Part shown: one piece after another, positions 2,702 through 50,163 of the stretch
How the letters are laid out: each line of letters starts with the position of its first letter
Numbering within the stretch: the stretch's first letter is position 1
DNA from: a virus
Taxonomy: Duplodnaviria; Caudoviricetes
Length of the DNA: 64,000 nucleotides
Strand: one strand, 5' to 3'
IMG/VR virus record: IMGVR_UViG_3300005259_000074
Span: 96,001-160,000 of that record
Made by a program: the position numbers and the translations under genes
The notes under the pieces: model-generated
What the model was told of the DNA's origin: nothing
The model's input: only the letters and a program-made list of their open reading frames with translations
Database searches by the model: none

Positions 2702-2800
2702 TTATTTCGAACTTGTTTCCGTTTCAACTTTGTGTATTACTTGATCAGCTTTGTTGAACGACGATAGAGTGCTCTCGTAAAGCTCTTCGAACTTGCTCAT
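2702..2800 (-). CDS. 32-aa micro-protein MSKFEELYESTLSSFNKADQVIHKVETETSSK carrying the shared leader
   Basis: Translated by hand (below the ORF-track cutoff); the first 10 residues match the starts of 2983..3441, 21516.. and 22382..; followed by a terminator. Confidence 0.6.
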   Translation of the reverse strand: MSKFEELYESTLSSFNKADQVIHKVETETSSK

Positions 2801-2858
2801 ATAATCATTCTTTCAGTTATTCTTTACTGCCGACCCACTCGTATGAGCCGTACTTAGC

Positions 2859-3005
2859 TTACAACCGCCAGTCGTCAGCTAGCTTATTCAACTCCTCCTC
2901 CTCCTCCTCGGGGATGTCGAACTTCTTCCTCATCCCCTTGCACGCCAACTCATCGAAAGCGATATCTTCACGAAGCTGTTCATCACTTCTTCCATTTATC
3001 TTCAT
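2859..3005 (-). CDS. 48-aa acidic hypothetical protein (MKINGRSDEQ...PEEEEEELNKLADDWRL)
   Basis: Hand-translated ORF filling the gap between two leader-bearing genes. Confidence 0.35.
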   Translation of the reverse strand: MKINGRSDEQLREDIAFDELACKGMRKKFDIPEEEEEELNKLADDWRL

Positions 3006-3441
3006 CAGCTTCTATGTAAGGGTAGAACTCCTTCGTGAATGCGTTTTTGGCTATCAATTTGTGAGTGTCATCCAATTTCTCATGAGCATCAACCAATTTG
3101 TGGAAGTACTGACCCATCGAGACGATGTCGTCCATAGTCTGCCTCGGAATCATGTTAGACTTATCAGCTTTTCTCCGATACTTGCTAGCATCCTTCCAAG
3201 TGTCTTTCATCTCATCATCAGAATCTATGACATTCTTCACGTGTTCTACATCTTTAGGATTTATCTTCTCGAACTTCCCACTGACTTTTCTGAATTCTGG
3301 AGCGCCAGCTTCTCTACCGTAGAGACCTCTGCCTAACGAGTGAGTGCCGTCTGGCCCCTTCTTTTCGGAGTTCTCGTAGTGCTCGTGAAAACTGTCGCGG
3401 CGTTGGACTATGCTCTCAACTAATTCTTCGAACTTGCTCAT
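2983..3441 (-). CDS. putative head-internal protein with leader and GPxGTH module
   Basis: Starts MSKFEELVESI; contains GPDGTHSLGRGLYG...FRKVSGKFEKI. Confidence 0.7.
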   Translation of the reverse strand: MSKFEELVESIVQRRDSFHEHYENSEKKGPDGTHSLGRGLYGREAGAPEFRKVSGKFEKINPKDVEHVKNVIDSDDEMKDTWKDASKYRRKADKSNMIPRQTMDDIVSMGQYFHKLVDAHEKLDDTHKLIAKNAFTKEFYPYIEADEDKWKK

Positions 3442-3451
3442 GTCATCCCTT

Positions 3452-3853
3452 TCAGTCTGAGAAGTCTTCTACCGAGCCAACTTCCTTAATGCGCTTCAGC
3501 ATCTTGTCGTCGAACACCTTCTTAGCAGAAGCGGCGTCTTCTATCTTGACGTTAACTACGATCGTGTCGTGCTCGACGTCCACTTCTATCTCAGCCCACT
3601 TCTCCAGAGGCTCTTTGCCTCCGGACTTGCGGAACTCAGCCTCTTCATCGGGCTTCATCTTCTTGAACTTGGCTTTCTCGTCCATGTAGCTCTTGTGGAA
3701 GTCCCTCTTGAGCTGGTTGACGTGAGCACGCAAATCGGAGACGATAGCTTTGGTGTCGGTTTCGTCTTTCTTGAGGACGACGGAGAACTCAGACATCTCG
3801 TCCAGACGGTTTCCCAGCAAAAACTCTCTGACAGCTGATTCAAAAAATTTCAT
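3452..3853 (-). CDS. hypothetical protein, probable internal protein (MKFFESAVREFLL...LDE)
   Basis: ORF track 3452..3868; the ATG at 3853 gives an MKF start and lies downstream of the late promoter at 3880-3887. Confidence 0.6.
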   Translation of the reverse strand: MKFFESAVREFLLGNRLDEMSEFSVVLKKDETDTKAIVSDLRAHVNQLKRDFHKSYMDEKAKFKKMKPDEEAEFRKSGGKEPLEKWAEIEVDVEHDTIVVNVKIEDAASAKKVFDDKMLKRIKEVGSVEDFSD

Positions 3854-3879
3854 GTATGATTCCCTCATTTACTTTGTTT

Positions 3880-3887
3880 TATTTATC
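3880..3887 (-). promoter_or_regulatory. T4-type late promoter GATAAATA
   Basis: Intergenic xxTAAATA shortly upstream of a start codon; the same motif recurs before many late genes. Confidence 0.6.
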
Positions 3888-3889
3888 GC

Positions 3890-4435: not shown

Positions 4436-4438
4436 CGC

Positions 4439-5314: not shown

Positions 5315-5338
5315 CGTTAGTTCCTCGGTTGAGCGAAC

Positions 5339-5346
5339 TATTTACA
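5339..5346 (-). promoter_or_regulatory. T4-type late promoter TGTAAATA
   Basis: 25 nt upstream of the glycosyltransferase start at 5314. Confidence 0.6.
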
Positions 5347-6727: not shown

Positions 6728-7300
6728 TCACTCCTCGAGTGCTGCTATGAAGTCGAGCGCCTGTACGACGTTGTTCGGGTGGAACACCCAGCGCTTGCCG
6801 CTGACTGACTCGAACCACTGTCTAGCTGTGTTAGTCTTCAGCTCCTTAGACATCGCTTGCCAGTCGGCGACCATCTCGGCGACGGCTTCTACTGGCATCT
6901 CGCGGACTTTTATCATCTTCTCTAGGCGATCGCGGTTCTTCGGGTCGAACACTATCGGGTCCTCGCTGTACGACTCAGGGTGGTGCCTGTTGTTGACCAC
7001 GTGGTGCAGCGTAGCGGCCCTTATAGACTCCTGGAGGTCAGCTGGGATAGCCAGGGGTGTGCCCTCGCGCTTGTTCTTGTACATCCAGTTGACCCACACG
7101 TAAGGTTCCTTCTCCTCTGCGTCGTTCAGCTTGCTGAAGTCGTGCATCCTCGGCATGTTGTCCAAGCCGAACTCGGCTGCCAGTTGCTGGTAGAACTCCT
7201 CGACGTACCCGATGTGCATCTTAGTGCGCGCGTCCGAGTATTTCTGCATCTCCGGTGTGATCTTCAAGTTCAGCGCTTCCATCATCTCTTCGAAAAGCAT
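6728..7300 (-). CDS. HD-like metal-dependent phosphohydrolase (DUF5662-like)
   Basis: TKMH...MHDFSKL...LHHVVNNRHHPE...EMVADWQAMS. Confidence 0.75.
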   Translation of the reverse strand: MLFEEMMEALNLKITPEMQKYSDARTKMHIGYVEEFYQQLAAEFGLDNMPRMHDFSKLNDAEEKEPYVWVNWMYKNKREGTPLAIPADLQESIRAATLHHVVNNRHHPESYSEDPIVFDPKNRDRLEKMIKVREMPVEAVAEMVADWQAMSKELKTNTARQWFESVSGKRWVFHPNNVVQALDFIAALEE

Positions 7301-11935: not shown

Positions 11936-12357
11936 CTCAACTTCAGCTCTGCCATCTTCAACTCAGTCAGGTCTTCGAACTGGTCTGCTTCTGCTTCCAG
12001 AGCTCTCCCGAAGAGTGGGAGTCTGCGCAAAGAGTACTTGAAGAAGCCCATGCGCTTCAGCTGGAGCATGTGAGTCATCTCGTGGATGAGGACCTTCACC
12101 ATCATGCCTCGTTGACCTCGGAAGTCTGCTAAGAAGATAGTGTCAGGTTGGCTCGCGCAGAAACAGCCCAGAGTTGCGCCGTCGTCAGCCATGTGCGGGC
12201 ACCAGTACACGTCGATGGCCGCTATGTCTATCTCAGCATGGTCTCTGAACCTCGAGTCTGACGCGAACACCGCTGAGCAAGTCCTGGTGAAGTATCCTAG
12301 TTCTTCGATGTCTATGTGGTATGCGCCTCTGGTGTAGAAGTACGAGGGGAAGATCAC
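11932..12357 (-). CDS. HExxH zincin-like metalloprotein
   Basis: LIHEMTHMLQ followed by a downstream LEAEA third-ligand motif. Confidence 0.65.
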   Translation of the reverse strand: MIFPSYFYTRGAYHIDIEELGYFTRTCSAVFASDSRFRDHAEIDIAAIDVYWCPHMADDGATLGCFCASQPDTIFLADFRGQRGMMVKVLIHEMTHMLQLKRMGFFKYSLRRLPLFGRALEAEADQFEDLTELKMAELKLR

Positions 12358-13634
12358 TTCTTGCTCCCGTTGACCGAGAACTTCTTCGGCAGCTTATTGT
12401 TCCACGCTGAGAACGTGGTCCTGTCGACGACTTTGACTGTGTTCTTCGGCGTGATTATCACGAAACCCTCTCCTGGAGTAGGTTCTAGTGTGCCATCAGG
12501 TGTCCTGATGAACGTCTTCCAATCGCCGGCTCTTGTGTTGGCCAGCGCTCTGTGTATGGTGTTCTTCATCTGTATCATCTTATAGTACACGTCGAACAGG
12601 TTTCTGAACGACTCCCTGTGGCTCTCTACGACACCTACCCACTTGTCGAGTTTCTCCATCTTCGAGAGTTTGACTTTCTCAGTCTTCACTTTATCAGCTT
12701 CTCGTTTCCAGTAAGTGGTGAAAGCTGCGACTAGCTCTGAGCACAGTCCATCTGCGTCTATCGGTTCTCCCCTGAGAGCGGCTCCGAATATCCCCATGTC
12801 AGCTCTGTCTTTCAGCTGGGAGTTGGCGAACACCTTCATCCGTTCTGTGAACTCTGGCAGGGTATCTATCACTCTGTACAGCTTTTTGACAGTTTTCTCG
12901 TGTCGCGTAATGGTGTCAGCCGCGTGTCCTAACAGGACTCGATGCTCGGACATGTATGCGTCTCTGGCGTATATTTCAGGCACGTTATTGAGGCTCTCTA
13001 CTATGGCGCCGACGCCTCTGTCAGACTGTTTCCACACGATGTCGTCTTCCCAACCCATCTCCTCATCTTCTCCGTCGCATTCAACTTGCTCTATCTCCAA
13101 GTCGTAAGCGGTGTGCACAACTCCTCCGAGTCTGGAGTTCATAACCCTGTAGAAAGACGGGTCATCATAGGTGACGGCGTACGTTATGGTGTTGGGAGAG
13201 AACAAGATGTGTCCCACACCGTCAATCTTCTCGTAAGTCTTATCTTCCTCGGTGAACATCAAGTCCATCTGATAAGCTTCGCCTGGAGACAGCTTCAGTC
13301 TTCCCTTCAGTTGTTCGAACAGCGCTCTCACCTGTTTCCTAGGCCCCGTTGGGATTATCATCCTGTCAACGTCAGAGATCTTCTTTATCAGTCGACCAGA
13401 GCTCATTGCGGACTTAGTGCCGACGAAGAACTTCTCGTCTGTGGGGTCCACTCCAAATACCAGAGCTGGAGCGCCATCGTACTTTTGAGTTATGCGCACA
13501 CCATTCCATGTAGACAGTCTAGATGCGATATCAATAAATGCGCAGATGCCGGCGGCCCCGAGTTCTATCGCGAGGTCGTCGAGGTGGGACAAGTGAGTTA
13601 TCGCGGCTTTGCCGCTGGTGTCGGAGGCTCTCAT
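12354..13634 (-). CDS. ATP-dependent ligase-fold nucleotidyltransferase-like protein (DUF6267-like)
   Basis: THLSHLDD, ITQKYDGAP (KxDG), FFVGTKS, GEGFV, VKVVDR..FS..N. Confidence 0.7.
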   Translation of the reverse strand: MRASDTSGKAAITHLSHLDDLAIELGAAGICAFIDIASRLSTWNGVRITQKYDGAPALVFGVDPTDEKFFVGTKSAMSSGRLIKKISDVDRMIIPTGPRKQVRALFEQLKGRLKLSPGEAYQMDLMFTEEDKTYEKIDGVGHILFSPNTITYAVTYDDPSFYRVMNSRLGGVVHTAYDLEIEQVECDGEDEEMGWEDDIVWKQSDRGVGAIVESLNNVPEIYARDAYMSEHRVLLGHAADTITRHEKTVKKLYRVIDTLPEFTERMKVFANSQLKDRADMGIFGAALRGEPIDADGLCSELVAAFTTYWKREADKVKTEKVKLSKMEKLDKWVGVVESHRESFRNLFDVYYKMIQMKNTIHRALANTRAGDWKTFIRTPDGTLEPTPGEGFVIITPKNTVKVVDRTTFSAWNNKLPKKFSVNGSKK

Positions 13635-13645: not shown

Positions 13646-15277
13646 TCAGCTGAGTTTTGCGAGTTCCTTGGTGAAGCCCTCAGATATCGACAAGTTCAGC
13701 GCGAAATTGCTAGACCCGATGGGTTTCTCCCTTATCTCGAGGTCGGCTATCTCGACAACTTTCTTATCGTTGCCCATAGAATACACTATGACTGGGCGGC
13801 CGAGCCTCCCCTTCGCTACTTTCAGGTGCTCTCTGATGTCGTTCATGTCGTCGGTGCCGAACATCTTCGCGCACGCTGCTTGGTCGAACACCTTGTCACC
13901 TATGATCATTGTCTCGCGTCCAGTGGCGACAGACTTGATGGGGAACTCGTCTCTGACGCTGTCTAGTAGACCAGTGACCATCTGGTGGTTGCTCATTATC
14001 GCCTTCGTCGCAGCTTCTTGGAACAACCGCCTGTCGTTGATCACGTCTTTGACCACGGCTCGGGCTTCAGGTGTCTTGAGTTTCGCAGCTACGCTGAGCA
14101 GCGCGGCGCTGTCTTTAGCGGATATGGCGATCACTTTGGACTCGTCGTTCTTGCTCTTCAAGCTGTCCAGCAGCTCCAAGTCAGCTTTGTTCTTTATCTT
14201 CTTCTCGACCGCAGCTGCTATCTCGGGAGTCGAGAACAAGTTAGCCAGCTTCTTGTTCAGCTTGCTCTTGTACGCGACTTTGTTGATCTCCTCTGGCTCT
14301 CCGCCGTGGGGGAAGACCCCTTTGACGAGCGTGTCGAACCAGCCGTTCTTGAAGTTCGTGTAGTCGTCTTTCTTCAGAGACACTTCGTGCACTTCTACGA
14401 GGCCGTCTTTGTCGACAGTCTTGATGAAAGCGTCAGTAGAGCTCTCGGCGTCATCGTAGTCCATGCCCAGTGCGTTGACGTCTTCTCTGGCGTCCCAAGC
14501 CGCTGCGACGATCTCTTTGCCCTTGAAAGCTTTGAGCACCGCTCTCCGGTTCTTCTCCGCAGCGTCCACCCAGGACTCGTCAATAGCACACTCCTGACCA
14601 GAGGTGGTCATCTCTTTCACTCGGGCCTTAATGTCGTGGAAGAACTTCTTAGCACGCGGAGCGTCCATAGTGCACGACATTAACGACATCAGCTCTCCAG
14701 TCCTCGACTTGAGAGAACCAGCTCCGGTGTCAGTCTTCTCGGTATAGAAACTCATGCTCTTGTGGCGTTTGTCGCTCTTGAGGTCGGTGTTCAGCATCCT
14801 ATCTATGATCTGATCGTACTTCTTCGGGTACTTTCCACCGCTGTCTGGACCATCTAAGCGGAACCTCTTGAAGTTAGATAGCACTTCTCGTCTCGTGTAG
14901 AACTTTTTGTCGTCGTGGTCGCGGAGGTCTTCTTTGAAAGCTTTCTCACCCTCGTGTCCAGTCGGAGACTGTGTGACCTGCTTCTTCGGCTTCAGCTGTC
15001 GAGCAGGAGACGTCACGACGAAGCCGTCTTCGTGGTCTGACGTAGCCAGCACGTCGTTAGCTCTGGACTTAGACGGAGGTCGTTCTTTCGCTACTTTATT
15101 GAGTTCTTTTAACGTGGGACGATCTTTATCCGTAACTTTCTTGAATTTTCCATCAACTTTCCTGTAGAGAGCGATGCCTTCTTCTTTGCCGTACCATCCG
15201 CCGCCTAAGTGGTGAGTGCCCTCCGGACCAGTGTCTAGCACTGTCTCAGCTAAGTACAACAAATAGTTAAACTTCAC
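13646..15277 (-). CDS. GPxGTH-module protein with PD-(D/E)XK-like domain
   Basis: N-terminal GPEGTHHLGGGWYG...YRKVDGKF; then RTGELM ... SSTDAFI ... EVSLKKD. Confidence 0.6.
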   Translation of the reverse strand: MKFNYLLYLAETVLDTGPEGTHHLGGGWYGKEEGIALYRKVDGKFKKVTDKDRPTLKELNKVAKERPPSKSRANDVLATSDHEDGFVVTSPARQLKPKKQVTQSPTGHEGEKAFKEDLRDHDDKKFYTRREVLSNFKRFRLDGPDSGGKYPKKYDQIIDRMLNTDLKSDKRHKSMSFYTEKTDTGAGSLKSRTGELMSLMSCTMDAPRAKKFFHDIKARVKEMTTSGQECAIDESWVDAAEKNRRAVLKAFKGKEIVAAAWDAREDVNALGMDYDDAESSTDAFIKTVDKDGLVEVHEVSLKKDDYTNFKNGWFDTLVKGVFPHGGEPEEINKVAYKSKLNKKLANLFSTPEIAAAVEKKIKNKADLELLDSLKSKNDESKVIAISAKDSAALLSVAAKLKTPEARAVVKDVINDRRLFQEAATKAIMSNHQMVTGLLDSVRDEFPIKSVATGRETMIIGDKVFDQAACAKMFGTDDMNDIREHLKVAKGRLGRPVIVYSMGNDKKVVEIADLEIREKPIGSSNFALNLSISEGFTKELAKLS

Positions 15278-16296
15278 AGTATCTCTCCGTTCATGATGTT
15301 ACCACTCAGGTCTCCGCTCAGAGTCTCCAAGTAGAAGTCGTAGTAATCTAGCGTCGACATGCCCTTTGGAAAATACCCCGTGTCATTCACCAGAAGGAGG
15401 TCTCCATCAGTGGTCGTCAAGAACTGCGGATCGCCTGAGAGGGGGGCAGGCCCTGACACCAGACCTGAGACGGTCCCTGACACGTCACTCCAATATCCCG
15501 AGAGGCCGGCGGATATCGGGAGGAAGTCCCACGCGTCTAACTTTATGAGGCCGCATATGATTGCTCCCTCATACTGGGAGAACGTTGTGGTCATAGGCAC
15601 TGTGTACCAGCGGTCCAGCATGTAGTTCTCTCCGACGGTCAGTAAACCAGGAGCGAAGTTGATGCGCTTTATTAGTGGTGTCGAGTCTCCGAGAGCGTCT
15701 GGGTCTGCTCCCATCCCTGGAAATATCCAAGTCTTATATGTGAACTGGGTGTTGGCGATTATCCTGTAAGGGTCGTTCTCGGTGACCTCTTCTGGCCAGT
15801 CCACTTGTAAGTCTCCGTCCCACACCACTTGGGACTTGATGTTCTTAGTCGGTTGCTTGGGGTGTGGCCAGACCACGTAGAAGTCTGGGTTGCAGAAAGG
15901 TATGAAGTTCGACACTATCTGGTCGAGATCGCTGTGGGTCTTAGTCACTATCGAGAGTGTGAAACCTATGTTCATCGGTACTGGAGAGTTCTTTATCAGC
16001 TGTGGGAGGCCGTCTGACGTCCCCTGGTAACGCAGCCTCTGCTGTAAGTCGTATGCCCGGGTGTTGTCTCTGGTCATGGAGTTCACCGAGAGCGTGATCA
16101 GCGGTATCTTCAGCGTCTTATCTCTGTTCTCTAGTGACTTGAGGACGCGGTCGCGCTGGCCGAACACACACGGGACCTTTATCAGCTCTTGCACGACGTT
16201 CTTGTTGTCGCGGCGGTCTATCACTATCGACGAGAAGACGTCTAACAGCTGAGCGGTGCTGGTCCTAAACTCTGCATTGTAAGAGCGGTACTTCAT
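15274..16296 (-). CDS. gp15: tail sheath stabilizer/completion protein (T4 gp15-like) with SG-rich C-terminal extension
   Basis: F..IVIDR...IKVPCVFGQRDRV...IPLITL......D..R...PVPMNIGFTLSI.TK...DLDQI..NFIPF.NP. Confidence 0.85.
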   Translation of the reverse strand: MKYRSYNAEFRTSTAQLLDVFSSIVIDRRDNKNVVQELIKVPCVFGQRDRVLKSLENRDKTLKIPLITLSVNSMTRDNTRAYDLQQRLRYQGTSDGLPQLIKNSPVPMNIGFTLSIVTKTHSDLDQIVSNFIPFCNPDFYVVWPHPKQPTKNIKSQVVWDGDLQVDWPEEVTENDPYRIIANTQFTYKTWIFPGMGADPDALGDSTPLIKRINFAPGLLTVGENYMLDRWYTVPMTTTFSQYEGAIICGLIKLDAWDFLPISAGLSGYWSDVSGTVSGLVSGPAPLSGDPQFLTTTDGDLLLVNDTGYFPKGMSTLDYYDFYLETLSGDLSGNIMNGEIL

Positions 16297-16321
16297 TTGG
16301 AAAACTCCGGAAGTTGCTCTC

Positions 16322-16357
16322 TATTTATGGCGCATTGGCGCCCAACGCGTGTAAATA
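16322..16357. promoter_or_regulatory. back-to-back divergent late promoters (CATAAATA minus 16322-16329; TGTAAATA plus 16350-16357)
   Basis: Located exactly at the strand switch between gp15 and the portal gene. Confidence 0.65.
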
Positions 16358-16428
16358 CTAACGGCCGAGTTGGCCTATCGTGCAACAGTGTCAGTGACAT
16401 AGAGTTCAAATTAAGAGGAAACGACTGC

Positions 16429-19400
16429 ATGGCTATCATAGGTACCTGGACCTCGAACAACACCCAGCTGTTCGGCGGCATAAAGCGGTTCTCTCACGCG
16501 CAAGCGGAAGCCGGCAACTACAAGCTTCCAGTCTTTGACGAAGTGAAGAGAGACTCCGACGTAGTCTCAGACATGAGCGTTATTGACAAGTACTTCAAGA
16601 ACATGCAGGAGCGAGAGACGTCTGGCGCTTACTGGGATTCTACTTCGTTCGGAAAGTTCTTGTACGCTTCGATCTCGACCAACAAACCAACTAGAGTTGG
16701 CAGCTATCGCCGCATGGCGATGTTCCCGGAGGTCGGAGACGCTATCGACGAGATCTGCGACAACGCGATGGCGTTCGATGAAAACAATAAGATAGTCGCG
16801 TTTAAGCTCAACCGTAAGTTCGACGCCGCGGCCGAGAAGGAGATCAACGCCGCTGCCGAAGAGTACTTGAACTTGTTCAACTTCGAGTCTAACATGTTCG
16901 AGATCATGCGGCAGCTCGTAGTAGAGGGCGAAGTCTGCTGGGAGAACATCATATCCAAAGACCACCCGGACGCGGGCGTCATCGGCATCAACCCCATCCC
17001 ATGCGAGACTTATGATTTCGCTATCGACACTAAAGCTAATAAAAAGACTGGAATAATCATCAACATAGCTTCCTCTGACCAGTCTGCCGACAACAAAGAG
17101 GGCACTGGCAAGAACAACAATAACAAGCGCGTTGTCGGCAACATGTCAGTTGAAACGCTGTCTAGCATAAACAACTTGAGCTCCTACGAGAAGATTAAGA
17201 ACGGTGAAGTGTGCTACATGCCGTTCGAACAGGTGACCTATGCCAACACCGGGCTCATATCTTTCGACGGTCTGATGGTGTACCCCGTGCTGGAGAGGGC
17301 TAGGAAGGCTTACAACCAGCTGTCACTCATCGAAGACTCCATAATCATATACCGTCTCGTCCGCGCTCCGGAGCGCTACGTGTTCAACGTGGACACGGGG
17401 ACTGCTTCTAGGTCTAGGGCCGAACAAGAGGTCCTCAAGATGATGAAGCGGTACAACACCAAGAAGGTGTACAACCCCTCGACGGGGACGACGACGAACG
17501 AGTACGATCCCTGCCTGCTTCTCGAGTGTCTTTCGATGAACACTGGAGTTCCTCTGCTCGACGGAAGAACTCTAACTATCTCTCAGATATCTGACGAAAT
17601 GAACGGTGGAAAGCAACTCTGGGCTTACAGCTTCGATCCTGAGACTGGTAAGTTCGCCCCAGGTAAGATCAGCTGGGCTGGAGTCACGAGAAAAGACGCT
17701 GAAGTGATGAAGATCACTTTCGACAACGACAAGACGATGACAGTCACGCCCGACCACAAGTTCCCGGTATGGGGCAAAGGCAAAGTCGAAGCTAAAGACC
17801 TCGTGATCGGCGACAGCATGATAGCGTTCAACAGGAAAAAAGAGAAGATCACCGCTGAGAAGAATGACTACGAAATGATATACGATCACGCTTCGCAGAA
17901 GTGGATATACACCCACCAGGCTGTCGCAGACTACTTCAAAGGCACGCTGTGTGAGCAATACGTATGGGACGAGGAGAATTTCTCCAAGAACAAGCGCTTC
18001 TCCGTCAGACACCACAAGAACTACGATAAGTCAATGAAAGCCGCGTGGAAGCGTTCGGACAGCATTCGATCTGCTCTCAAGAAGTACAACGATGAAAAAT
18101 GGGCTGATCCTAAGAATAGAGAAAGACTTTCGGCGTGGTACAGCTTCAAGCCTTCTAAGTTGATATTCGACCGCATCACTACCGCAATTGCCGATAAAAG
18201 ATTGGCGTTCATCGATGAAGTAGTAGAATTCTGCAATTCTGATGAGCTGTGCGCAGCTGAATACTCCAGGGTACACACAAGCGTCCACACCGTCGGCGAG
18301 AAGATCAGCAGACAGTACTTGATGATGCTCTCCAAGAATTTTGGATTCGACTCCTTCAGAAGCCTGATCAGAGAGTTCAATCCAACTGCGAAGTTCGTCA
18401 ACCAGAGGACGCTCGATCGTGCTAGACTTCAGAAAAAGTTCGTCTACACGCACGACATGCTCAAGATGCTGATAGACACCGTCAAGGCCAACAGAGACAT
18501 CAAGATGAAGGAATGCGCGGTCATCCTCAAAAATGATCAGCGGTTCATGGAATTGATGGATGAAGCCAACGGTGACAACTCGCAGTACAAGAGAGAAAAA
18601 TTCGGTTGGGGGCACGTGCAGAGCCTCGTTCACTCTTTTGGATACGAAGATTTCAGGTTGTTCCGCAAAGAACTTCAGAACCACAACCACCGCGTAGTGA
18701 AGATCGAGTACCTCTCTCAGAGAGAAGACACTGGCACGCTGGTCATCGACGGAGACAACGAGTTCCACGACTATCACACGTTCGCCACTGATGCTGGAGT
18801 TGCGACATGTAACAGTTTCTGGTTCAGCAAGCCCGCTGGAAGCACTGGAACCACTGTCGACACGTTGTCATCCAGCGTCAACCTCGGCGAGATGAAGGAC
18901 TTAGACTACTTCCTCAGGAAGTTGTACGTCTCTCTCAAGATACCCTACAACAGGTACGCACAGCCGGAGATCAACATCCAACGTGGCGAGCAGATCAACT
19001 ATGAAGAGTATCGCTTTGCGAAGTTCATCATGCGCTTACAGCAGTGCCTCGCAAAGGGCCTCGCCAATGGGCTCATATCTCACCTCCGCTTAAGAGGAGT
19101 CTGGGACCGCTTGAAGTTGCGCAACAGAGATTTCATCGTCCAGTTCACTCCTCCGACCTCGTTCGACATATACGAATCACAGAAGCGCCTCCAACTCATG
19201 ACGGAGCGCTACTCGCTGATGGCGCAGTACCAAGAGATGTCCAAGACTCTCCTCCAGAAGAAGTACCTCGGGTGGACCGAGATAGACGTCGAGGAGAACT
19301 GGCGCTTCCTAGAGGAAGAGCAAATAAAAGCAGCTAAGATCCGCTGGAAGACCATGCAGATAGAGCAGACGGGTAAGGTCGGAAAACCAGGCACAGACCC

Positions 19401-19599
19401 TTACGCTTCCCAGGTCGTGGGTGCCGAGGGTCAGTCTCCAGAAGGACAACAGGGGCAGGAAAACGTGATCCAACCGTCTTCAAGCCAGAGTCAGCCCGGC
19501 CAGTACCCCGGTCTTCCACCTCCGCTACAGGACCACGAGGACGACCAGCAAGGACAAATTAAAGACGATGAGGAAGGGGACGAGAGAGATGTTGAATAA
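16429..19599 (+). CDS. gp20: portal protein (T4 gp20-like) containing an intein
   Basis: YRRMAMFPEVGDAIDEIC, LERARKAYNQL.LIEDSIIIYRLVRAPER.VFNVDTG, LGEMKDLDYF.RKLY..LKIP; AGAGGA RBS before ATG 16429. Confidence 0.95.
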   Translation: MAIIGTWTSNNTQLFGGIKRFSHAQAEAGNYKLPVFDEVKRDSDVVSDMSVIDKYFKNMQERETSGAYWDSTSFGKFLYASISTNKPTRVGSYRRMAMFPEVGDAIDEICDNAMAFDENNKIVAFKLNRKFDAAAEKEINAAAEEYLNLFNFESNMFEIMRQLVVEGEVCWENIISKDHPDAGVIGINPIPCETYDFAIDTKANKKTGIIINIASSDQSADNKEGTGKNNNNKRVVGNMSVETLSSINNLSSYEKIKNGEVCYMPFEQVTYANTGLISFDGLMVYPVLERARKAYNQLSLIEDSIIIYRLVRAPERYVFNVDTGTASRSRAEQEVLKMMKRYNTKKVYNPSTGTTTNEYDPCLLLECLSMNTGVPLLDGRTLTISQISDEMNGGKQLWAYSFDPETGKFAPGKISWAGVTRKDAEVMKITFDNDKTMTVTPDHKFPVWGKGKVEAKDLVIGDSMIAFNRKKEKITAEKNDYEMIYDHASQKWIYTHQAVADYFKGTLCEQYVWDEENFSKNKRFSVRHHKNYDKSMKAAWKRSDSIRSALKKYNDEKWADPKNRERLSAWYSFKPSKLIFDRITTAIADKRLAFIDEVVEFCNSDELCAAEYSRVHTSVHTVGEKISRQYLMMLSKNFGFDSFRSLIREFNPTAKFVNQRTLDRARLQKKFVYTHDMLKMLIDTVKANRDIKMKECAVILKNDQRFMELMDEANGDNSQYKREKFGWGHVQSLVHSFGYEDFRLFRKELQNHNHRVVKIEYLSQREDTGTLVIDGDNEFHDYHTFATDAGVATCNSFWFSKPAGSTGTTVDTLSSSVNLGEMKDLDYFLRKLYVSLKIPYNRYAQPEINIQRGEQINYEEYRFAKFIMRLQQCLAKGLANGLISHLRLRGVWDRLKLRNRDFIVQFTPPTSFDIYESQKRLQLMTERYSLMAQYQEMSKTLLQKKYLGWTEIDVEENWRFLEEEQIKAAKIRWKTMQIEQTGKVGKPGTDPYASQVVGAEGQSPEGQQGQENVIQPSSSQSQPGQYPGLPPPLQDHEDDQQGQIKDDEEGDERDVE
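17527..18813 (+). mobile_element. intein (429 aa) in portal, with degenerate HNH-type endonuclease region
   Basis: Block A CLSMNT.V.L.DG, block B TVTPDHKF, block F DTGTL.IDG..FHDYHTF, end TCN followed by Ser+1; removal restores LLE-SFWF, matching the gp20 (M)LEDYWL motif. Confidence 0.92.
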
Positions 19600-20713
19600 G
19601 TTCGAGATGCTCTGCGCCGGTATAGTGTTAGAAGGAGTCGACCCAGTCCCTTATCCGCTAGAAGTCAGCGAGAAGGGAAAATTGGCCGTCGACAGCCTGA
19701 ACAAGGGCATCGAAGACAAGATGATCCTTAACCCAGTCTTCCAAGACGCTAAGTCTCGTCTGAACAACAACATAGAGCTCATAACTTGGCACAACGGCAA
19801 CGTGCTCGGGCCAGAAGGCATGTACAACGTGGCGTACCGCGTAGACGCTATCCCTCACGGACTGCGAGACGTCCCCAAAGCTATCAAAGGACTCAAGACC
19901 ATAGTCGATTCACCAGAGCTCCCCGCGAAATTCACCAATTTCAACGCCAATTTTAGTGAGGAATGGGCAAGGACGAACTGGATCGCCCTGCGAGATGGGA
20001 TGCGGAAGTACTTGAAGATACTCGAGTCTTGGCTACCTGTGATCAAGATGCTAGACGAACTGAAACCTCTGATAGTCAAGGGTAGGCAGCCGAACCCCAA
20101 CGCAGTCCCATCGTTCCAACCTCAGAAGGCCGACCCAGCTACTGAGAAGATAGTGGTAGACGTGCTGAACCAGCTCGCGGCCCCTCTGAAACCGAAAGTG
20201 GTAGAGACTCTCGTCGCGCAAGACGAGAAGTACGTCAAGCGGTTCCAGGAGTCCGGTCTCCCAGTCAGCTACAACGACATTCGCAAGTTCTTCAAGAACG
20301 ACATCGAAGCTATGAAGGTAGTCGACTCGTGCTTGAACCCCGCTGCGACGGCCATCATCCCCAACTACAGAGACAAACTGACACAGTCCGCGACGAGATC
20401 TGTCAACGACATGGTCACTAGGTTCATCAGCAAGAACGTGGAGAAGATAGCGCCTCTGCTAGCTCGCAAGCAGGGTTCTGAAGCCAGAGTGCTCCACGGC
20501 AACCTCGATGGGATAGGTTTCAGCGGAGAGATCTCGTTCAAGTTCAACGACGGCACTAGCTTCGTAGTCAGGAACAAAGTAGTCATGAAGTACACCGCGA
20601 TGCAGCAGCAGTTCCTGCAGTTCCCGACGACTTTCCACAACGTGGTGTTCCCAGACGGCTCTAAGAAAGCGATGCAGTCTGAAGAGCAGATGCACAAAGA
20701 CTGGCTGAAGTGA
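19589..20713 (+). CDS. hypothetical virion/prohead-core-position protein
   Basis: Start overlaps the portal stop; MLNKFEML..IVLEG leader; sits between portal and protease, where T4 has gp67/gp68. Confidence 0.65.
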   Translation: MLNKFEMLCAGIVLEGVDPVPYPLEVSEKGKLAVDSLNKGIEDKMILNPVFQDAKSRLNNNIELITWHNGNVLGPEGMYNVAYRVDAIPHGLRDVPKAIKGLKTIVDSPELPAKFTNFNANFSEEWARTNWIALRDGMRKYLKILESWLPVIKMLDELKPLIVKGRQPNPNAVPSFQPQKADPATEKIVVDVLNQLAAPLKPKVVETLVAQDEKYVKRFQESGLPVSYNDIRKFFKNDIEAMKVVDSCLNPAATAIIPNYRDKLTQSATRSVNDMVTRFISKNVEKIAPLLARKQGSEARVLHGNLDGIGFSGEISFKFNDGTSFVVRNKVVMKYTAMQQQFLQFPTTFHNVVFPDGSKKAMQSEEQMHKDWLK

Positions 20714-20776: not shown

Positions 20777-21514
20777 ATGCCGGCTGAAATCATAGCTAGC
20801 GGACTGAAACTGCTGACGGAGACTCTCTATACAGACGTAGACATCGAGACCATCGTCGAGCAGAAGAACCCGAACGAAGCGAAGTTCCTCAAGATCAGAG
20901 GACCTTACATCGTCTCCGAGAAGCGGAACATCAACGGGCGCACCTACTCCCGCTCTCTGATGGAGAGCTCGGTCGCAGAGTGGAAGAAAGAGTGGCTCGA
21001 CACGAAACGCTCTTACGCTGAGCTGAACCACCCGGACTACATCAAAGTCGACCCAAAGAACGCGTCCGACCTCATCGTCGCGCTAGAACAGCAGGGCGAC
21101 ATGTGGATTGGCGAGTCGATCGTCCTGTGCAGCGACTTCGCCCACAACATCAAGGGCACTATGAACGGAGACACCCTGGCAGCGCTGATCCAGCACGGCG
21201 GTAAGATCGGCAAGTCGACCCGCGGCGTCGGCCAGATCAGCGAAGACAAGCGCGTAGACAAGATCTACAAGCTCATAACGGTCGACACCGTGGTAGACCC
21301 ATCTGGCCCTGGGTGCATGGTCGACGGGATACTCGAGAGCAAGGAGTTCCTCATCACCGCGCACGGCGACATCATGGAGAACGCGATCAACAAGTTCGCT
21401 TCGTCTGTGGCTAACATACCGTCTCACTCTGTGAAGACGGACATCGGCAGGGAGTACGTAGTCTCGCTGTTCGACAAGTTCATAATTGACATTAATTCTA
21501 AGAGGAGCATCTGA
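20777..21514 (+). CDS. gp21: prohead core protease (T4 gp21-like)
   Basis: IRGPY...E.RNINGRTY, AELNHP, IGKSTRGVG, ITVDTVVDPS. Confidence 0.92.
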   Translation: MPAEIIASGLKLLTETLYTDVDIETIVEQKNPNEAKFLKIRGPYIVSEKRNINGRTYSRSLMESSVAEWKKEWLDTKRSYAELNHPDYIKVDPKNASDLIVALEQQGDMWIGESIVLCSDFAHNIKGTMNGDTLAALIQHGGKIGKSTRGVGQISEDKRVDKIYKLITVDTVVDPSGPGCMVDGILESKEFLITAHGDIMENAINKFASSVANIPSHSVKTDIGREYVVSLFDKFIIDINSKRSI

Positions 21515-21515: not shown

Positions 21516-22334
21516 ATGGGTAAGTTCGAAGAGCTTTACGAGAGCATCACCGACGATCTGATTTCAGAAGGGAAAGAAAATGCCGGTCTGATGGGTCCTG
21601 ACGGAACTCACAGCATTGGACAGGGTTTCTACGGTCACCACATCGGCGAAGCTATGTTCAAGAAGGCCGGAGGCAAGTTCGTGAAAGTTAATAAGGGTGA
21701 AGGACCGTCTGACGAGCATTCAGGACACAAGAAATTGCTCGCTCAAACCGCAGCAATCGGGGAAGACGACTGGGCCGCGCGTCATAAAATCTACCAACTC
21801 GTCGGAAAAGCTGACGCTCACACTCTGCATAAATTAGCTGATCACAAAAATTTTAATGTTCGGCAAGCAGTTGCTAGCAGCTCCGAAACGCATCCCGACA
21901 CGCTGCGAAAGTTAGCTGACGATAAAAATGAACACGCGCGGAGAGAAGTTCTTATGAATCCTAAGACACCACAAGACGTGCTAAGGAAAGCTGCTAAACA
22001 TCACAGTCAGTACGTTCGATATTACGTAGCAGGGAATCCCAATGCGCATCCTGACGATCTACACAACTTAGCTAATGAGAAAAGTCATCATACAAGAAGT
22101 GAGGTCGCAAGCAATCCTAATACCAGTGAAAAGACTCTTTTGAAATTGGCCGACGACACGAATAATATCGTGAAAACTAACGTGGCTGACCACCCCAACG
22201 CTACTGAAAGAGTGTTGAACGCACTTTTAAAACATAAGAGAGAGGGGAACCAGGACCTAAGTCATGGAAACGTCGAGTTTGCTGTGGATATAGCCAGAAA
22301 GAAACTCAAGAAGAAACTTGAGAAGAAAGATTAA
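21516..22334 (+). CDS. leader + GPxGTH module + LRV/HEAT-like repeat protein
   Basis: MGKFEELYESI; five to six ~24-aa repeats (L.KLA.D....VR..VA.NP.T....L). Confidence 0.75.
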   Translation: MGKFEELYESITDDLISEGKENAGLMGPDGTHSIGQGFYGHHIGEAMFKKAGGKFVKVNKGEGPSDEHSGHKKLLAQTAAIGEDDWAARHKIYQLVGKADAHTLHKLADHKNFNVRQAVASSSETHPDTLRKLADDKNEHARREVLMNPKTPQDVLRKAAKHHSQYVRYYVAGNPNAHPDDLHNLANEKSHHTRSEVASNPNTSEKTLLKLADDTNNIVKTNVADHPNATERVLNALLKHKREGNQDLSHGNVEFAVDIARKKLKKKLEKKD

Positions 22335-22381: not shown

Positions 22382-22858
22382 ATGAGTAAATTCGAAGAAC
22401 TCTGCGAGAGCATCCTGTCGGAAGCGAAAGCTGCTGACAAGGAAGTCAAAGGTAGGAACTCCAAGGGCCAACTGCGGGGTCCCGAAGGTACTCACTCTCT
22501 CGGCGGCGGCTTCTACGGTAAGAACAAGGGCGAAGCTGAGTACAGGAAGGTCGACGGAAAGTTCGAGAAGATAGACTCCACCACTCACCACATAGACCTA
22601 GACATCGCCGACGAGCGCGGCTTACTCCGAAATAAGAATAAACTGCCTTTCAAGCATATTGTCAAGGTCAAGCAGCACGGGCCAGGCGGCGGGAACCCGG
22701 TCTACAGGTTCGCAGCAGACAGACACACGCTGCACCGCTACATACACAAGCACTACGCGAACGACGCAGAAGAAGCCAGAGAGCTGATGAACAGCGCGAA
22801 GAAGTCTTCCGACGACGAGCTGAAAGAGCTCAAGAAGATGGAGAAAGCCGAGCATTGA
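22382..22858 (+). CDS. leader + GPxGTH module + small C-terminal domain
   Basis: MSKFEELCESILSEA; GPEGTHSLGGGFYG...YRKVDGKFEKI; GAGGAG RBS. Confidence 0.75.
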   Translation: MSKFEELCESILSEAKAADKEVKGRNSKGQLRGPEGTHSLGGGFYGKNKGEAEYRKVDGKFEKIDSTTHHIDLDIADERGLLRNKNKLPFKHIVKVKQHGPGGGNPVYRFAADRHTLHRYIHKHYANDAEEARELMNSAKKSSDDELKELKKMEKAEH

Positions 22859-30891: not shown

Positions 30892-30899
30892 TATAAATA
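30892..30899 (+). promoter_or_regulatory. late promoter TATAAATA
   Basis: Exact T4 late consensus. Confidence 0.75.
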
Positions 30900-30928: not shown

Positions 30929-31219
30929 ATGTCTAAACGCAACGAATTCTTGAAGATCTACGAGAACGTTCGCATGAGCGATGAACAGAAACCCATGACA
31001 GAGAGCGTTGAGAGAGAATTGCAAGCTAAGTGTGTGGCGTCAGCGAAATCTCTGAATGACGCTGAACGCGTGTTGCAGAAAGCTATCGACATCGCTTCGA
31101 AAGAAGTCAAGAAAGACGCGACTCTCGGAGACGTCGTGGGCGACCTCGTAGCAGCTAAGGAAACTCTCGTCAAGCTGGTCAAAGACATCAACGACATCGA
31201 GACTAAGCTCGTAGGGTAA
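30929..31219 (+). CDS. small helical protein in its own transcription unit
   Basis: Own late promoter and terminator; MSKRNEFLKIYE leader-like start. Confidence 0.65.
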   Translation: MSKRNEFLKIYENVRMSDEQKPMTESVERELQAKCVASAKSLNDAERVLQKAIDIASKEVKKDATLGDVVGDLVAAKETLVKLVKDINDIETKLVG

Positions 31220-46144: not shown

Positions 46145-49100
46145 ATGCTTAAGTACTTCCCCAAGAAGGGCGAAGATTTCTCTACTACGGCGAAAGCCAA
46201 AGAGTTCTCCATAAACCAAGTGTGGCAGAACTACGACGAACTGTGGAACTTCGTCTCGGGGTCTACTGAGGGCATAGGCTCTCTGGTGTTTGAACACGTG
46301 TCTAACTTCGTGCAGAACATAAGAGACATCGAGACGTGCGGCTTACACCAATTGTACTCAATGGCGTCCGAGCTAGACGTCTCTCAAGTGTTCTCCTATG
46401 ACTTGGAGTACCCATACCATCTCGAAAGACTCATGGACGAACTCTCCATCAGTAGATCTCATTTACTGTGTTCCGGAAGTGTCCTGCAGGACGGAGTCAT
46501 CAGTCAACTGTACACTGATGTAGGCTCACAGGTCAGCTCTATCGTCTGGTATTCTCCGTCTGGCTACGTGACTTCGGGATACATTCCGGGCGCTGTCAGC
46601 GCAGTTGTGTACAGCAATGTCATCGTAGACTCTACGTACTTGACCGACGTGATAGAGGGGTCAATCAGCGCTAACTTAGCGTACTACGCAAACCAATCGC
46701 TATATGCGTCAGGTGCGATGTCCGGCGTAGCAGCTGACTACTTAGGTTTCATGTCGGAGATATACAGCATCCCATCCGCGTTCACTTTCACTGCGTCTAA
46801 CAGCGCACAGGTGGTGATGGACTGCACTCACACACTGCGCAACATCGCAGTAAAAGCCTCGTATCAGCGAGAGACATTAAAACGACTGGCGCAGAAGTTC
46901 GCAATGATAGGAACTACCAATGCCATCGAGAAGATCATCGGCGAATACATACTCAGGGGGTTCACCCGCAAAGATGACTGGCGGCTGTACGTCACCCCAT
47001 CGGGCTCCGGACAGTCTAACTTAACTAACTTGTCGTACGCCCTGGAGTCTCACCTACCTCGTTTGACAGACATCAATTCTTATTTCAACGTAGACGTAGT
47101 CGAGTACTACGACACCACAGAATACTTGAACGTGTCTGCTGAGTCTGCGCCTAATTATATCGCGCAGTATTCCAGTGGATACCTCACGTCTTCATGGATC
47201 GACATCAGTGGTAATTTGTGTGAAGTGCAGTACATGTCCCCATCAGCAGTCGTCGCGTGGGTGCCGTCTGGTTACGTCGTCACTGGAGGCAACTCGAGGT
47301 TCTGGGAAGGAGATGTGTTTAGCGACTCAACTTATATGACTGATTGGACCGCTGACCAGATAAGTGGGTACTTCAGCTCTATGGGCCTCAGTGCGATGAC
47401 TCTTCCAGAAGCCACTGGATTCCATGCCTTCGTGTGGGACATCCTGGCTGCCAGCGGGTACAACCGCTACGCGGTGATCCCAGAGCTGACGGGTGTGCTG
47501 ACTCCGAAGTACGCAGCGACTCCTGTGAGCGGTTACGACAGCGTGCCGGCGAGTGGGTGGCTGACACCCAGGACTAGCCTGTCGGCAATGCACTTTAAGT
47601 ACATAGGAAATGCGTCTGGAGACACTCCGCCTGCCAATATCCAGAACTCGCTGTACCCGACTGTCGCTCCACAACCCTTCATATGGAACTTAGTCGAAAA
47701 GATATACCAAGACTATCCAGACCTCCTCTCGACGATACTAATGACGGAACAAGCTACAAGCGGGCAATGGTCTCAGATGGTAGACGCGTCTGGCAACTTA
47801 ATAGACTCTTGGAAATACTTCAACCATGAATACATGGGCTATCAAACCGCATACGAGCAGTCAGACAACCTGAACTGGGCGGAGACGATGGACCCCAACA
47901 TCGACAGAGATGGTCCGTTCAACCCCAATGCCTTGAGCGCTTTCATAACGTCTTACGATGGAACTTATGCGACTATACAGCAGACTCTGTCTGGCTACTT
48001 CGCGAGCATCTCCAAGGAGTACGCCACTTCCGGAGTGCCAACGTCGGTGTCGGCGCAGCTAGTCGACTACAGAGACGATATGTTAGCTCTATCAGGCATG
48101 ACCATAGCGCAGTACGGCTTCGACCAATACGACAACAACTACATTCTCTATAAGCAGTACGCAGGTTACGAGAACACTGGCACTATATGGATGAGGTACC
48201 GCAACCACCCTCTGCCGTTCCCGATGTGCGATGGACCTTACTCCAACTGGAGGGAGCAGCAGGTGTTCCTCTACGGAGGCCTCGGGATGGGCCTACAAGA
48301 CATCGTCAACGGCGGTTGCTACGACATGGGTCACATCGGAGATGTGATGTGGGTGTACGGGAGTCCGGCGTCTGGGGCTTCTGACAGGCTCTGCGTGTTC
48401 CACAATGACTATACGTGGTTTCCGTCGCCGTCAGCAGTCACACTGTTCTCGGTCGTCGTAGACAGCAACGGAGGAGACTTACCTCAGTACATTGACATCG
48501 ATAGAAAAAACTTCGTGGGGAGCTACTCGTTTCAAGACTGGCTGATATTCGTGCAGCTAATACCTACTTCTGGAGACATCACGGCCGGCGGAAACTTCGG
48601 AAATTTCAAGTTCAACCACTACAACACCATAACTCACGTGTTCGAAGACGCGCAGTTCACCAACTTGAACTTGCAGAACTTGCCTCCGCTGTACTACGCC
48701 GGCGACAACTCGCGTCCGTTCAGGCTGTCGGCTTCGCAGAGCATGGTGACCATAGCTTACGAGAGCGACAACTCCTCACACGCTGCTGAGTCGTACACCG
48801 GAGCGGGTTTTGCGAACGGCATAACGACGATAGACATCGACATCAACTCTCTCAGCGACGTTGCTGGCGCTTACACTGTGTTCGAATGGTACAGAGTGCT
48901 AGAGGACACGAGTGGGGAAGGGCCTTGCTATGGGCTGTGCAGCAGTTCTTCGTCTTCTGCTACGTCTAGTTCGTCTAGCTCTACGCACCCGACCCCACCT
49001 GGAATCTGGATATGGTGGGAAGCTGGAGGCTCTTCTTCATCCTCATCCTCATCTTCGTCATCGAGCAGCTCTAGCAGTCATTCATCGTCGAGCAGCTCTA

Positions 49101-49438
49101 ACTCGAGTTCATCGTCATCGAGTTCTAGCAGCGAGTCAGTGTCTAGCAGTTCATCTTCAAGTTCTTCGACTGACCCTGCGACCATCTGTTATTTCGGCGT
49201 ACTAACGTGGGGAACTAACTCAACAGATCCGTTGAACGGAGGATGTGCTAACGGTGGACAAGCTGGTTGTTGCAACGATGCGACAATGACGAGTAGTTGG
49301 CCAAAGGTCGTCCCGGGCGTTGTCACATACATCGAGAGCGGTTATTTCGCTGGTTGTCACGTCATGCTCTTACCATGCGGTTATAGCTGTGCAAGAGTTT
49401 ATGATCATCCTGAGTGGCCTTGCACCTGCTCGTGTTAA
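46145..49438 (+). CDS. large baseplate wedge-like protein (gp7-like) with poly-Ser linkers and a Cys-rich tip
   Basis: NFVQNIRDIETC..HQLYSMASEL and LAQKFAMIGT..AIE..I motifs; position after gp6 and the fibres. Confidence 0.55.
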   Translation: MLKYFPKKGEDFSTTAKAKEFSINQVWQNYDELWNFVSGSTEGIGSLVFEHVSNFVQNIRDIETCGLHQLYSMASELDVSQVFSYDLEYPYHLERLMDELSISRSHLLCSGSVLQDGVISQLYTDVGSQVSSIVWYSPSGYVTSGYIPGAVSAVVYSNVIVDSTYLTDVIEGSISANLAYYANQSLYASGAMSGVAADYLGFMSEIYSIPSAFTFTASNSAQVVMDCTHTLRNIAVKASYQRETLKRLAQKFAMIGTTNAIEKIIGEYILRGFTRKDDWRLYVTPSGSGQSNLTNLSYALESHLPRLTDINSYFNVDVVEYYDTTEYLNVSAESAPNYIAQYSSGYLTSSWIDISGNLCEVQYMSPSAVVAWVPSGYVVTGGNSRFWEGDVFSDSTYMTDWTADQISGYFSSMGLSAMTLPEATGFHAFVWDILAASGYNRYAVIPELTGVLTPKYAATPVSGYDSVPASGWLTPRTSLSAMHFKYIGNASGDTPPANIQNSLYPTVAPQPFIWNLVEKIYQDYPDLLSTILMTEQATSGQWSQMVDASGNLIDSWKYFNHEYMGYQTAYEQSDNLNWAETMDPNIDRDGPFNPNALSAFITSYDGTYATIQQTLSGYFASISKEYATSGVPTSVSAQLVDYRDDMLALSGMTIAQYGFDQYDNNYILYKQYAGYENTGTIWMRYRNHPLPFPMCDGPYSNWREQQVFLYGGLGMGLQDIVNGGCYDMGHIGDVMWVYGSPASGASDRLCVFHNDYTWFPSPSAVTLFSVVVDSNGGDLPQYIDIDRKNFVGSYSFQDWLIFVQLIPTSGDITAGGNFGNFKFNHYNTITHVFEDAQFTNLNLQNLPPLYYAGDNSRPFRLSASQSMVTIAYESDNSSHAAESYTGAGFANGITTIDIDINSLSDVAGAYTVFEWYRVLEDTSGEGPCYGLCSSSSSSATSSSSSSTHPTPPGIWIWWEAGGSSSSSSSSSSSSSSSSHSSSSSSNSSSSSSSSSSESVSSSSSSSSSTDPATICYFGVLTWGTNSTDPLNGGCANGGQAGCCNDATMTSSWPKVVPGVVTYIESGYFAGCHVMLLPCGYSCARVYDHPEWPCTCSC

Positions 49439-49546
49439 ATAAACACAAATGGGAGACTATTTCACAATGAAAGAAAATTTAAGGATATGATCCGATATTG
49501 TCATTTTATGACTACGTGTGCATCAAACGTAATTAACTTTTCTGAG

Positions 49547-49554
49547 AATAAATA
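49547..49554 (+). promoter_or_regulatory. late promoter AATAAATA
   Basis: In an AT-rich spacer upstream of the HAD gene. Confidence 0.55.
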
Positions 49555-49584
49555 CCCTTAGACAGAATCAACTGCGAGAACATA

Positions 49585-50163
49585 ATGAAATTTTTCGACA
49601 TTTTAACTGAGTTGACTCTCTCAGAGTCTTTCAGTGACAACGCATACGTCTTTGACTTCGACGACACGCTGTTTCACACTGACTGTAAGATAGAGGTTAG
49701 AGACAAGAAGACTGGCGGAGTGGTCAAGCGCTTGTCGTCGGCTCAGTTCAACCACTACAAGTTGGACTCAGGAGAGGAATTCGACTTCTCGGAATTCGAA
49801 GACGTCTCGCGGATAATGGCTGGGAAACCTGCTAAGATGCTCAGAGCTGCGCAGAACATATCTGATGCAGTGACTAGCGGCAAATCCAATAGCGTCATCT
49901 ACGTGGTCACTGCGAGAGCTGGAATGGGGACAGAAGACGCTATAACGTCTGTGTTGAACAAACACGGTGTCTTCGTCAAGCGAGAGAACGTGTACGCGGC
50001 CGGTAACACTGCCAAAGACACTGGGGACATCCCCACTGAGAAGTCTAAGATTGTGAAGAGCATCCGTGAGAGACACGGAGGTAAGATAATGTTCTACGAC
50101 GACAGCTCGGCCAACGTGGCCGCTGTCAAGGATGTCAAAGGCGTCAACGCCAGAAAAGTCTGA
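49585..50163 (+). CDS. HAD-superfamily phosphatase
   Basis: YVFDFDDTLF (motif I), VVTAR (II), K (III), FYDDSSAN (IV). Confidence 0.85.
   Translation: MKFFDILTELTLSESFSDNAYVFDFDDTLFHTDCKIEVRDKKTGGVVKRLSSAQFNHYKLDSGEEFDFSEFEDVSRIMAGKPAKMLRAAQNISDAVTSGKSNSVIYVVTARAGMGTEDAITSVLNKHGVFVKRENVYAAGNTAKDTGDIPTEKSKIVKSIRERHGGKIMFYDDSSANVAAVKDVKGVNARKV

Follow-up and report, generated by a model that had tools for sequence, protein, structure and literature searches.

Why do genes scattered over a viral genome begin with nearly the same few residues, and what do those residues do? The question is raised by a window of 64,000 nucleotides (IMG/VR record IMGVR_UViG_3300005259_000074, bases 96001-160000 of a phage genome that forms one contig of 262,470 bp), in which an original prediction assigned a shared leader, M-x-K-F-E-E-L-x-E, to about ten late genes. 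It was read there as a counterpart of the phage T4 capsid targeting sequence, the N-terminal peptide that the prohead protease gp21 removes, and a large cargo including enzymes was thought to be packaged into the head. The phage is a deep-branching, uncultured member of the T4 superfamily, and its leader, with the consensus M-S-K-F-[Q/E]-E-L-x-E, is likely to be its capsid targeting and processing signal of the T4 internal-protein type. This reading is well supported at the level of sequence by the modularity of the leader, selection on the peptide, a match to the T4 determinants, placement in head operons and an intact gp21 homologue, and it applies to a set of genes that differs from the one first listed.

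All 11 N-termini quoted originally are encoded at their starts, those at 2800, 3441, 3853, 7300 and 15277 lying on the minus strand and the last beginning with GTG. Strict M-[S/G]-K-F-E-E-L-x-E, however, is found in four window open reading frames (ORFs) only, with starts at 2800, 3441, 21516 and 22382, so that the motif itself stands but the count of about ten was overstated. A position-specific scoring matrix was built from the genome-wide strict leaders and applied, leave-one-out, to all predicted N-termini, with 1,236 internal-methionine windows as controls. The score distribution is bimodal: strict carriers reach +11 to +33 bits against a top control value of +2.2, while the remaining listed genes score -7.3 (49585), -11.4 (15277), -12.1 (30929), -12.3 (3853), -22.8 (19589), -24.3 (7300) and -34.3 (34091). 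Genes 3853, 7300, 30929, 34091 and 49585, which do no better than the controls, are accordingly dropped; 15277 and 19589 are probably diverged variants despite their noise-level scores, the former being counted in the family because it shares with strict carriers a second, 32-residue module overlooked in the original prediction. About half of the earlier list thus survives (four strict carriers and two variants), and with it the T4-type reading, which sequence logic supports well for the strict leader and which does not extend to the other five genes. Packaging of HAD, HD and nuclease-like enzymes is left unsupported, since neither the weakly HAD-like gene at 49585 (E 0.008) nor the supposed HD gene at 7300, a DUF5662 protein, has the leader. 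The window carriers, the presumed processing enzyme and an adjoining terminator are as follows (a slash marks the predicted cut).

2702..2800, minus strand: 32-residue ORF with strict leader MSKFEELYE/S, the last of its operon and followed by a terminator.
2646..2675, minus strand: intrinsic-terminator-like hairpin and T-run directly after the 32-residue ORF (11-bp G+C-rich stem, -18.8 kcal/mol, then TTTTTG).
2983..3441, minus strand: 152-residue protein with strict leader MSKFEELVE/S (+22.9 bits); module at 3262-3357.
13646..15277, minus strand: 543-residue protein with GTG start and degenerate leader (M)KFNYLLYLAE/T; module at 15134-15229.
19589..20713, plus strand: 374-residue protein with probable leader variant MLNKFEMLCAGIVLE/G, between portal and protease in what would be the T4 gp67/gp68 slot.
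20777..21514, plus strand: gp21-type prohead protease, presumed to remove the leader (phrog_207, 1.3e-37; PDB 5JBL, 5.2e-10).
21516..22334, plus strand: 272-residue protein with strict leader MGKFEELYE/S and a second site, I-S-E, at residues 16-18; module at 21594-21689.
22382..22858, plus strand: 158-residue protein with strict leader MSKFEELCE/S (+29 bits) and a second site, L-S-E, at residues 12-14; module at 22478-22573.

In a six-frame translation of the whole genome, the core K-F-[Q/E/D]-[E/D]-L occurs 13 times, in every case immediately after an ORF-initial M-[S/G]. Among 100 codon shuffles the strict form did not appear and the core had a mean of 0.47 occurrences; the strict motif is far beyond chance. 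Together with about eight variants, the 13 strict leaders bring the total to about 21 carriers, whose starts in genome coordinates are given below.

Strict leaders outside the window: 53160, 53627, 53959, 54377, 54744, 55591, 74966, 251065 and 251529.
Strict leaders of the four window ORFs: 98800, 99441, 117516 and 118382.
Variants: 52178 and 52732 (MSKFDD), 252309 (MTKFQKL), 233488 (MFSKFDAL), 242855 (MTKKFDAIFE), 186347 (MKNFENICE), and 111277 and 115589 (window 15277 and 19589).

The positions of putative cleavage sites would link leader and protease. T4 gp21 cuts after L/I-X-E, and in the T4 internal protein IPIII the first 10 residues suffice for targeting, residues 4 and 7, which are Y4 and F7 in that protein, governing targeting and residues 8 and 10 processing (PMC9026906). 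Here 12 of the 13 strict carriers have L7-x-E9, and [L/I/V]-x-E falls within residues 5-16 in 20 of the 21 carriers as against 15% of other genes. Where the site at 7-9 is missing, which is the case in seven carriers, a replacement ends by residue 16 in six and occupies residues 17-19 in the seventh, the background for a site within residues 10-16 being 8%. F4 and L7 are invariant in an alignment of carriers and relatives, and AlphaFold2 (AF2) places both in a helix spanning residues 3-20. On the enzyme side, the catalytic His85 and Ser147 occupy columns invariant among T4-type, cyanophage and vibriophage gp21 proteins and correspond to the two residues mutated to Ala in the 5JBL chain; moreover, an N-terminal L-T-E of the protease aligns to T4 L-I-E. 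Prediction of a complex between the protease and the N-terminal 40 residues of a carrier returned no answer (score 0.04) and speaks neither for nor against binding.

The likeness to the T-even targeting sequence of IPI-III extends from the general arrangement, an N-terminal peptide of about 10 residues on otherwise unrelated small proteins, to individual positions: an aromatic residue at 4, Q/E/K at 5, E at 6, a hydrophobic residue at 7 and an L/I-x-E end. The annotated internal head proteins of the T4-type phage BW-1 begin MKTYQEFITE, MKTFKEFIAE and MKTYKEFIKE; set against the first two, the leader agrees position by position at M1, aromatic 4, Q/E/K 5, E6 and hydrophobic 7, the peptide being too short for statistics. 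As with the T-even internal proteins, the genes lie in variable clustered arrays and a gp21-type protease is encoded. The differences are that the consensus is MSKF(Q/E)ELxE rather than MKT(Y/F)(Q/K)EFIxE, that residues 12-15 often contain a second, back-up site, and that six carriers have the additional conserved module of 32 residues.

In the mechanism that we propose, the leader would fold into a short amphipathic helix, one face of which would display F4, L7 and the hydrophobic residues around positions 11-12; this helix would dock the newly made protein onto the scaffolding core during prohead assembly. The gp21-type protease would then cut after the glutamate of L7-x-E9, or after the back-up [L/I/V]-x-E at about residues 12-15, and the freed body would remain in the head and enter the host with the DNA. 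Within the window this would apply to the products of 2800, 3441, 21516 and 22382, and probably to those of 15277 and 19589; it would not apply to those of 3853, 7300, 30929, 34091 and 49585.

The genomic surroundings of the carriers are largely consistent with such a route. Eight of them form a co-oriented array between a tail-tube-like gene and a 48-residue ORF, past which lie a gene for an acidic, helical, scaffold-like protein of 334 residues and then the gp23 capsid gene. Two more directly follow the gp21-type protease, and others are found near the tail sheath gene and near neck-like and large-terminase-like genes, the latter two judged by their N-termini only. Carriers are co-oriented both in this tail tube-scaffold-capsid operon and in the portal-protease operon. 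The 334-residue protein and the 48-residue ORF show no significant similarity to T4 gp22 and gp67, respectively, and no similarity of the 374-residue protein to T4 gp68 is detectable; position and composition are what suggest the scaffold, gp67 and gp68-slot roles. The carriers may be expressed late, to judge by operon context together with (T/G)xTAAATA motifs that precede several operon-first genes, among them those for the protease and the gp3-like protein, which have xATAAATA variants instead of the exact box. Exact TATAAATA boxes occur on the plus strand at window positions 30892, 34052, 53710 and 58713, 36-39 nt before the starts at 30929, 34091, 53748 and 58749, and would fit T4-type late promoters. 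Several carriers end in KKD-stop or K-W-x-K (genome 52738-53166 and neighbours, L001); KKD-stop was considered as a C-terminal tag and rejected, being the Shine-Dalgarno sequence of the next gene inside coding sequence (AAGAAGGAC TGA).

A number of observations weigh against a capsid targeting role. The neighbours of three carriers (genome 251065-252309) are apparent topoisomerase genes, so identified by N-terminus only, and not structural genes. The leader is one residue shorter than its T-even counterpart, with L-x-E at 7-9 in place of 8-10, and homology with the T4 sequence cannot be proved from a mere ten residues. Around the T4 gp23 cut the capsid protein gives a poor alignment, the nearest candidate being V-N-E/S, and the cleavage preference of the protease is itself a prediction. 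T4 internal proteins are typically basic, and the isoelectric points of the carriers after the leader span 5.3-9.4, with only some basic; not all carriers, therefore, can be basic DNA-binders. Furthermore, three of the four strict window carriers are paralogues, so that window data alone cannot tell a tag from shared ancestry, and the phage is known from metagenomes only.

Some of these points would suit a leader that docks a partner other than the prohead core, such as a chaperone, the tail or baseplate assembly, a modifying enzyme or a degradation system: certain carriers do neighbour tail sheath, neck/terminase and topoisomerase genes, and scaffold binding by the leader is something that we infer. 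We nevertheless regard this as unlikely, because the [L/I/V]-x-E rule agrees with the specificity of gp21, the largest array sits within a head operon with two further carriers placed after the protease, and the combination of aromatic 4 and hydrophobic 7 is a specific match to the T4 determinants (PMC9026906).

Whether the shared start could instead be the N-terminal remnant of one duplicated and diverged family, with no part in targeting or processing, depends on what follows it. The bodies of 20 carriers were compared all-against-all by BLASTP (E < 1e-3) after removal of the first 15 residues. Only the six module carriers are interlinked, their matches being confined to a stretch of about 35-40 residues except in one pair; 14 of the 20 match none in the set, and conservation among carriers ends abruptly beyond about residue 10-14. 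The module itself, GP[DE]GTH-x-[L/I]-G-x-G-x-YG...[F/Y][R/K]K-x-x-GKF-x-K[I/V], is a beta-hairpin that may serve as a second anchor or a DNA-contact element; between it and the leader lie 5 to about 45 linker residues, which are disordered in the AF2 model. Pfam and PHROG scans gave no match for most carriers. Besides the 272-residue protein with its LRV/HEAT-like repeats, two that could be placed, one of them tentatively, have quite different bodies.

Genome 53967-54377 (L001:5967-6377), minus strand: DUF5856/phrog_858 carrier, Dps-like (the phrog_858 label is 'starvation-inducible transcriptional regulator').
Genome 251529-252305 (window coordinates 155529-156305, hence outside the window; L004:5529-6305): carrier with a probable ADP-ribosyltransferase fold and L-N-E just before the conserved body.

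The former is a candidate DNA- or metal-binding protein that would be packaged with the genome. For the latter the Atlas lead is DUF3990/DarT/PARP/Arr; all top PDB rows for its AF2 model (predicted local distance difference test, pLDDT, 82) are ADP-ribosyltransferases, weakly matched (Foldseek E >= 0.09, VIA Z up to 6.5) and led by Tpt1/KptA, pertussis S1, DarT and Arr (Z 4.3-6.5). Across 11 homologues Y27-x-H29-G-T, Y72 and E124 do not vary, and this set of H-G-T, Y and E probably points to the H-Y-E branch (Tpt1/Arr/DarT-like).

In these homologues the conserved body starts from M-A-x-P and is preceded by a lineage-specific peptide of 8-17 residues that in most ends in [L/I/V]-x-E: FLNE in the present phage, IVLE in an 81%-identical relative, and MKSFKQFLNE and MKSFRQFIVE, close to the T4 sequence, in others. 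Differing peptides before the same body thus argue for the same cargo under lineage-specific leaders that stop at the same boundary. One homologue contig is T4-like, with gp53- and gp5-like genes. On another metagenome phage contig with such a homologue, three neighbouring genes (L020:4267-8029) start MKNKIIESVLKEA, MGKEQIIDYVLH and MDKLQIIGNILKEA; their shared start, M-x-K-x-(Q)-I-I-x-x-[I/V]-L-K-E, ends in L-K-E and suggests that this lineage has a third leader code of its own.

Descent from one family does account for part of the set, in that three of the four strict window carriers and 15277 are true paralogues with the 32-residue module, and the tandem arrays suggest duplication. As an explanation of the leader as a whole it is quite improbable: 14 carrier bodies have no detectable mutual similarity and their domains differ, conservation stops sharply behind the leader, orthologous cargo elsewhere has a different leader ending at the same boundary, and where a variant has lost the first L-x-E site, a second has been gained.

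What is under selection is the peptide. Pairwise comparison of codons 2-9 in 11 strict leaders gave 166 synonymous against 74 non-synonymous differences, with five kinds of codon for Leu7 (CTT, CTA, CTG, CTC and TTA), and the 60 nt upstream of the carriers are not alignable, their ribosome-binding regions being unconserved; both the synonymous excess and the unalignable upstream DNA argue that the unit under selection is not an element in RNA or DNA. That the peptide is a by-product of such an element, be it a translation-initiation or regulatory RNA or a site of recombination or cassette exchange, is thus very hard to credit: wobble positions are free and the amino-acid pattern is kept in relatives, although two carriers do share an exact 25-nt identity and, T-even ip loci being a hotspot of variation (PMC12373910), recombination at the leader may occur additionally. 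The identity, reported originally for the ORFs at 21516 and 2800, is exact (21522-21546 on the plus strand and 2794-2770 on the minus strand), and occasional exchange between leader copies is possible in its light.

Few relatives of the capsid targeting leader proposed here were found. A profile of leader plus module run against 1.8 billion proteins returned 15 matches, five of them from the phage's own genome and one a spurious repeat protein; relatives with an intact N-terminus all start with MSKF or a close variant (MNKF, MNF), and their short contigs again show tandem carriers. Most of the relatives' contigs have no DNA on file or are shorter than 1.4 kb. Other searches gave no relatives of the module in IMG/VR by profile, no tblastn match of a module carrier among phages, no relation between the module profile and a T4-type internal protein, and, with a leader DNA pattern, 0 viral contigs and one short metagenome contig. 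One relative, P0010 (L005:627-1253, on a metagenome contig), has leader and module at its N-terminus and a second in-frame leader, MKFQELYESI, at residue 68 with an unrelated body after it; either two tandem carrier genes have fused or the contig is misassembled, and the protein, if real, would yield two proteins upon protease cleavage.

Comparison with characterized systems helps to place the set. The Ip proteins of T4 have only their leader in common, and each of the three leader-tagged ones inhibits a distinct host Type IV restriction enzyme; internal proteins number three in T4 and at least 10 across related phages (PMC12373910). In phiKZ-like giants, many head-internal proteins are cut after glutamate by a diverged gp21-like protease at redundant propeptide sites (PMC9026906). 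Glutamate-site processing with redundant sites, as in the ejection and inner-body propeptides of phiKZ, 201phi2-1 and SPN3US, is predicted here too; those phages, however, use S/A-x-E and long non-uniform propeptides, whereas the present one has a single short shared leader and T4-type portal, protease and capsid genes.

A further parallel concerns T4 Alt, an ADP-ribosyltransferase of the R-S-E type that is packaged in the head and trimmed by gp21. The ADP-ribosyltransferase-like carrier, with its L-N-E before the body, is possibly a functional analogue of Alt, from which it differs in its H-Y-E-branch residues; the evidence for its fold is middling (best Z 6.5) and sequence homology to Alt was not seen.

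T4 already exemplifies the principle of a leader-coded head cargo; new here are a different consensus, the number of carriers within a single genome and the additional module. With 13 strict and about eight variant carriers against the three of T4, a set of about 20 in one genome would, if the targeting reading is true, exceed the counts found in the literature on T4-like phages, which are three for T4 itself and at least 10 over related phages together. We would go further only tentatively, to a doubtful but conceivable scheme in which about 20 proteins are loaded into the head by one leader code and the module serves as a second element retaining a subset of them via scaffold or DNA. As the T4 leader-tagged proteins inhibit restriction enzymes, the leader would mark candidate first-strike counter-defence factors, and could provide a sequence rule by which injected, probably anti-defence, proteins are recognised in metagenomes of uncultured T4-like phages. 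The proteins so marked are about 20 of unknown function, including the Dps-like, the HEAT/LRV-repeat and the probable ADP-ribosyltransferase carriers. Should the leader work as in T4, the code for targeting would be seen to drift from lineage to lineage with its logic (aromatic 4, hydrophobic 7, [L/I/V]-x-E) preserved.

Individual window carriers add some detail. The 32-residue ORF at 2702..2800 is either a mini-cargo or a leader remnant. The 543-residue protein has a 60%-identical orthologue, P0017, which starts MNFDSLLDIVE/A; the two have F3, L6/L7 and, at residues 9-11, [I/L]-x-E in common and differ in the rest of the leader. Adjoining its gene is that of a DUF6267 protein (3.6e-52; window 12354-13634, minus strand), and the gene order is the same on the orthologous contig. 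The N-terminus encoded at 19589 resembles the leader with a one-residue insertion and has V-L-E at residues 13-15. The 272-residue protein ends in an LRV/HEAT-like repeat domain (PF01816, 5.2e-14; PF25591, 1.3e-9). In the AF2 model of the 158-residue protein (pLDDT 80), helix 3-20 and a disordered tether at 19-26 precede a beta-rich domain; a fold search with this model rose above noise in neither the PDB nor AlphaFold DB, the sole recurring likeness being to small uncharacterised phage proteins.

The structural genes that surround the carriers conform to the T4 type at low identity: identity to cultured phages is at best 31-37% for protease and capsid protein, an 8-kb megablast query had no match among GenBank phages, and the clade is very thinly sampled.

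15274-16296: gp3-like tail sheath stabiliser.
16297-19599, plus strand: T4 gp20-type portal of about 1100 residues (PF07230, 4.5e-83).
Genome 49144-50532, outside the window: gp23-type capsid gene (PF07068, 1.5e-86).

Genes resembling gp5 and gp6 of the baseplate lie downstream. In length the portal is roughly double T4 gp20; it has a large insertion, at about residues 419-811, that gives a weak Intein_splicing match (32.9 bits, under the 35.8-bit cut-off) and may be an intein. Near the left end of the window, an ORF at 1911-2516 on the minus strand contains the motif GRFQPLHIGH and has a nucleotidyltransferase-like look.

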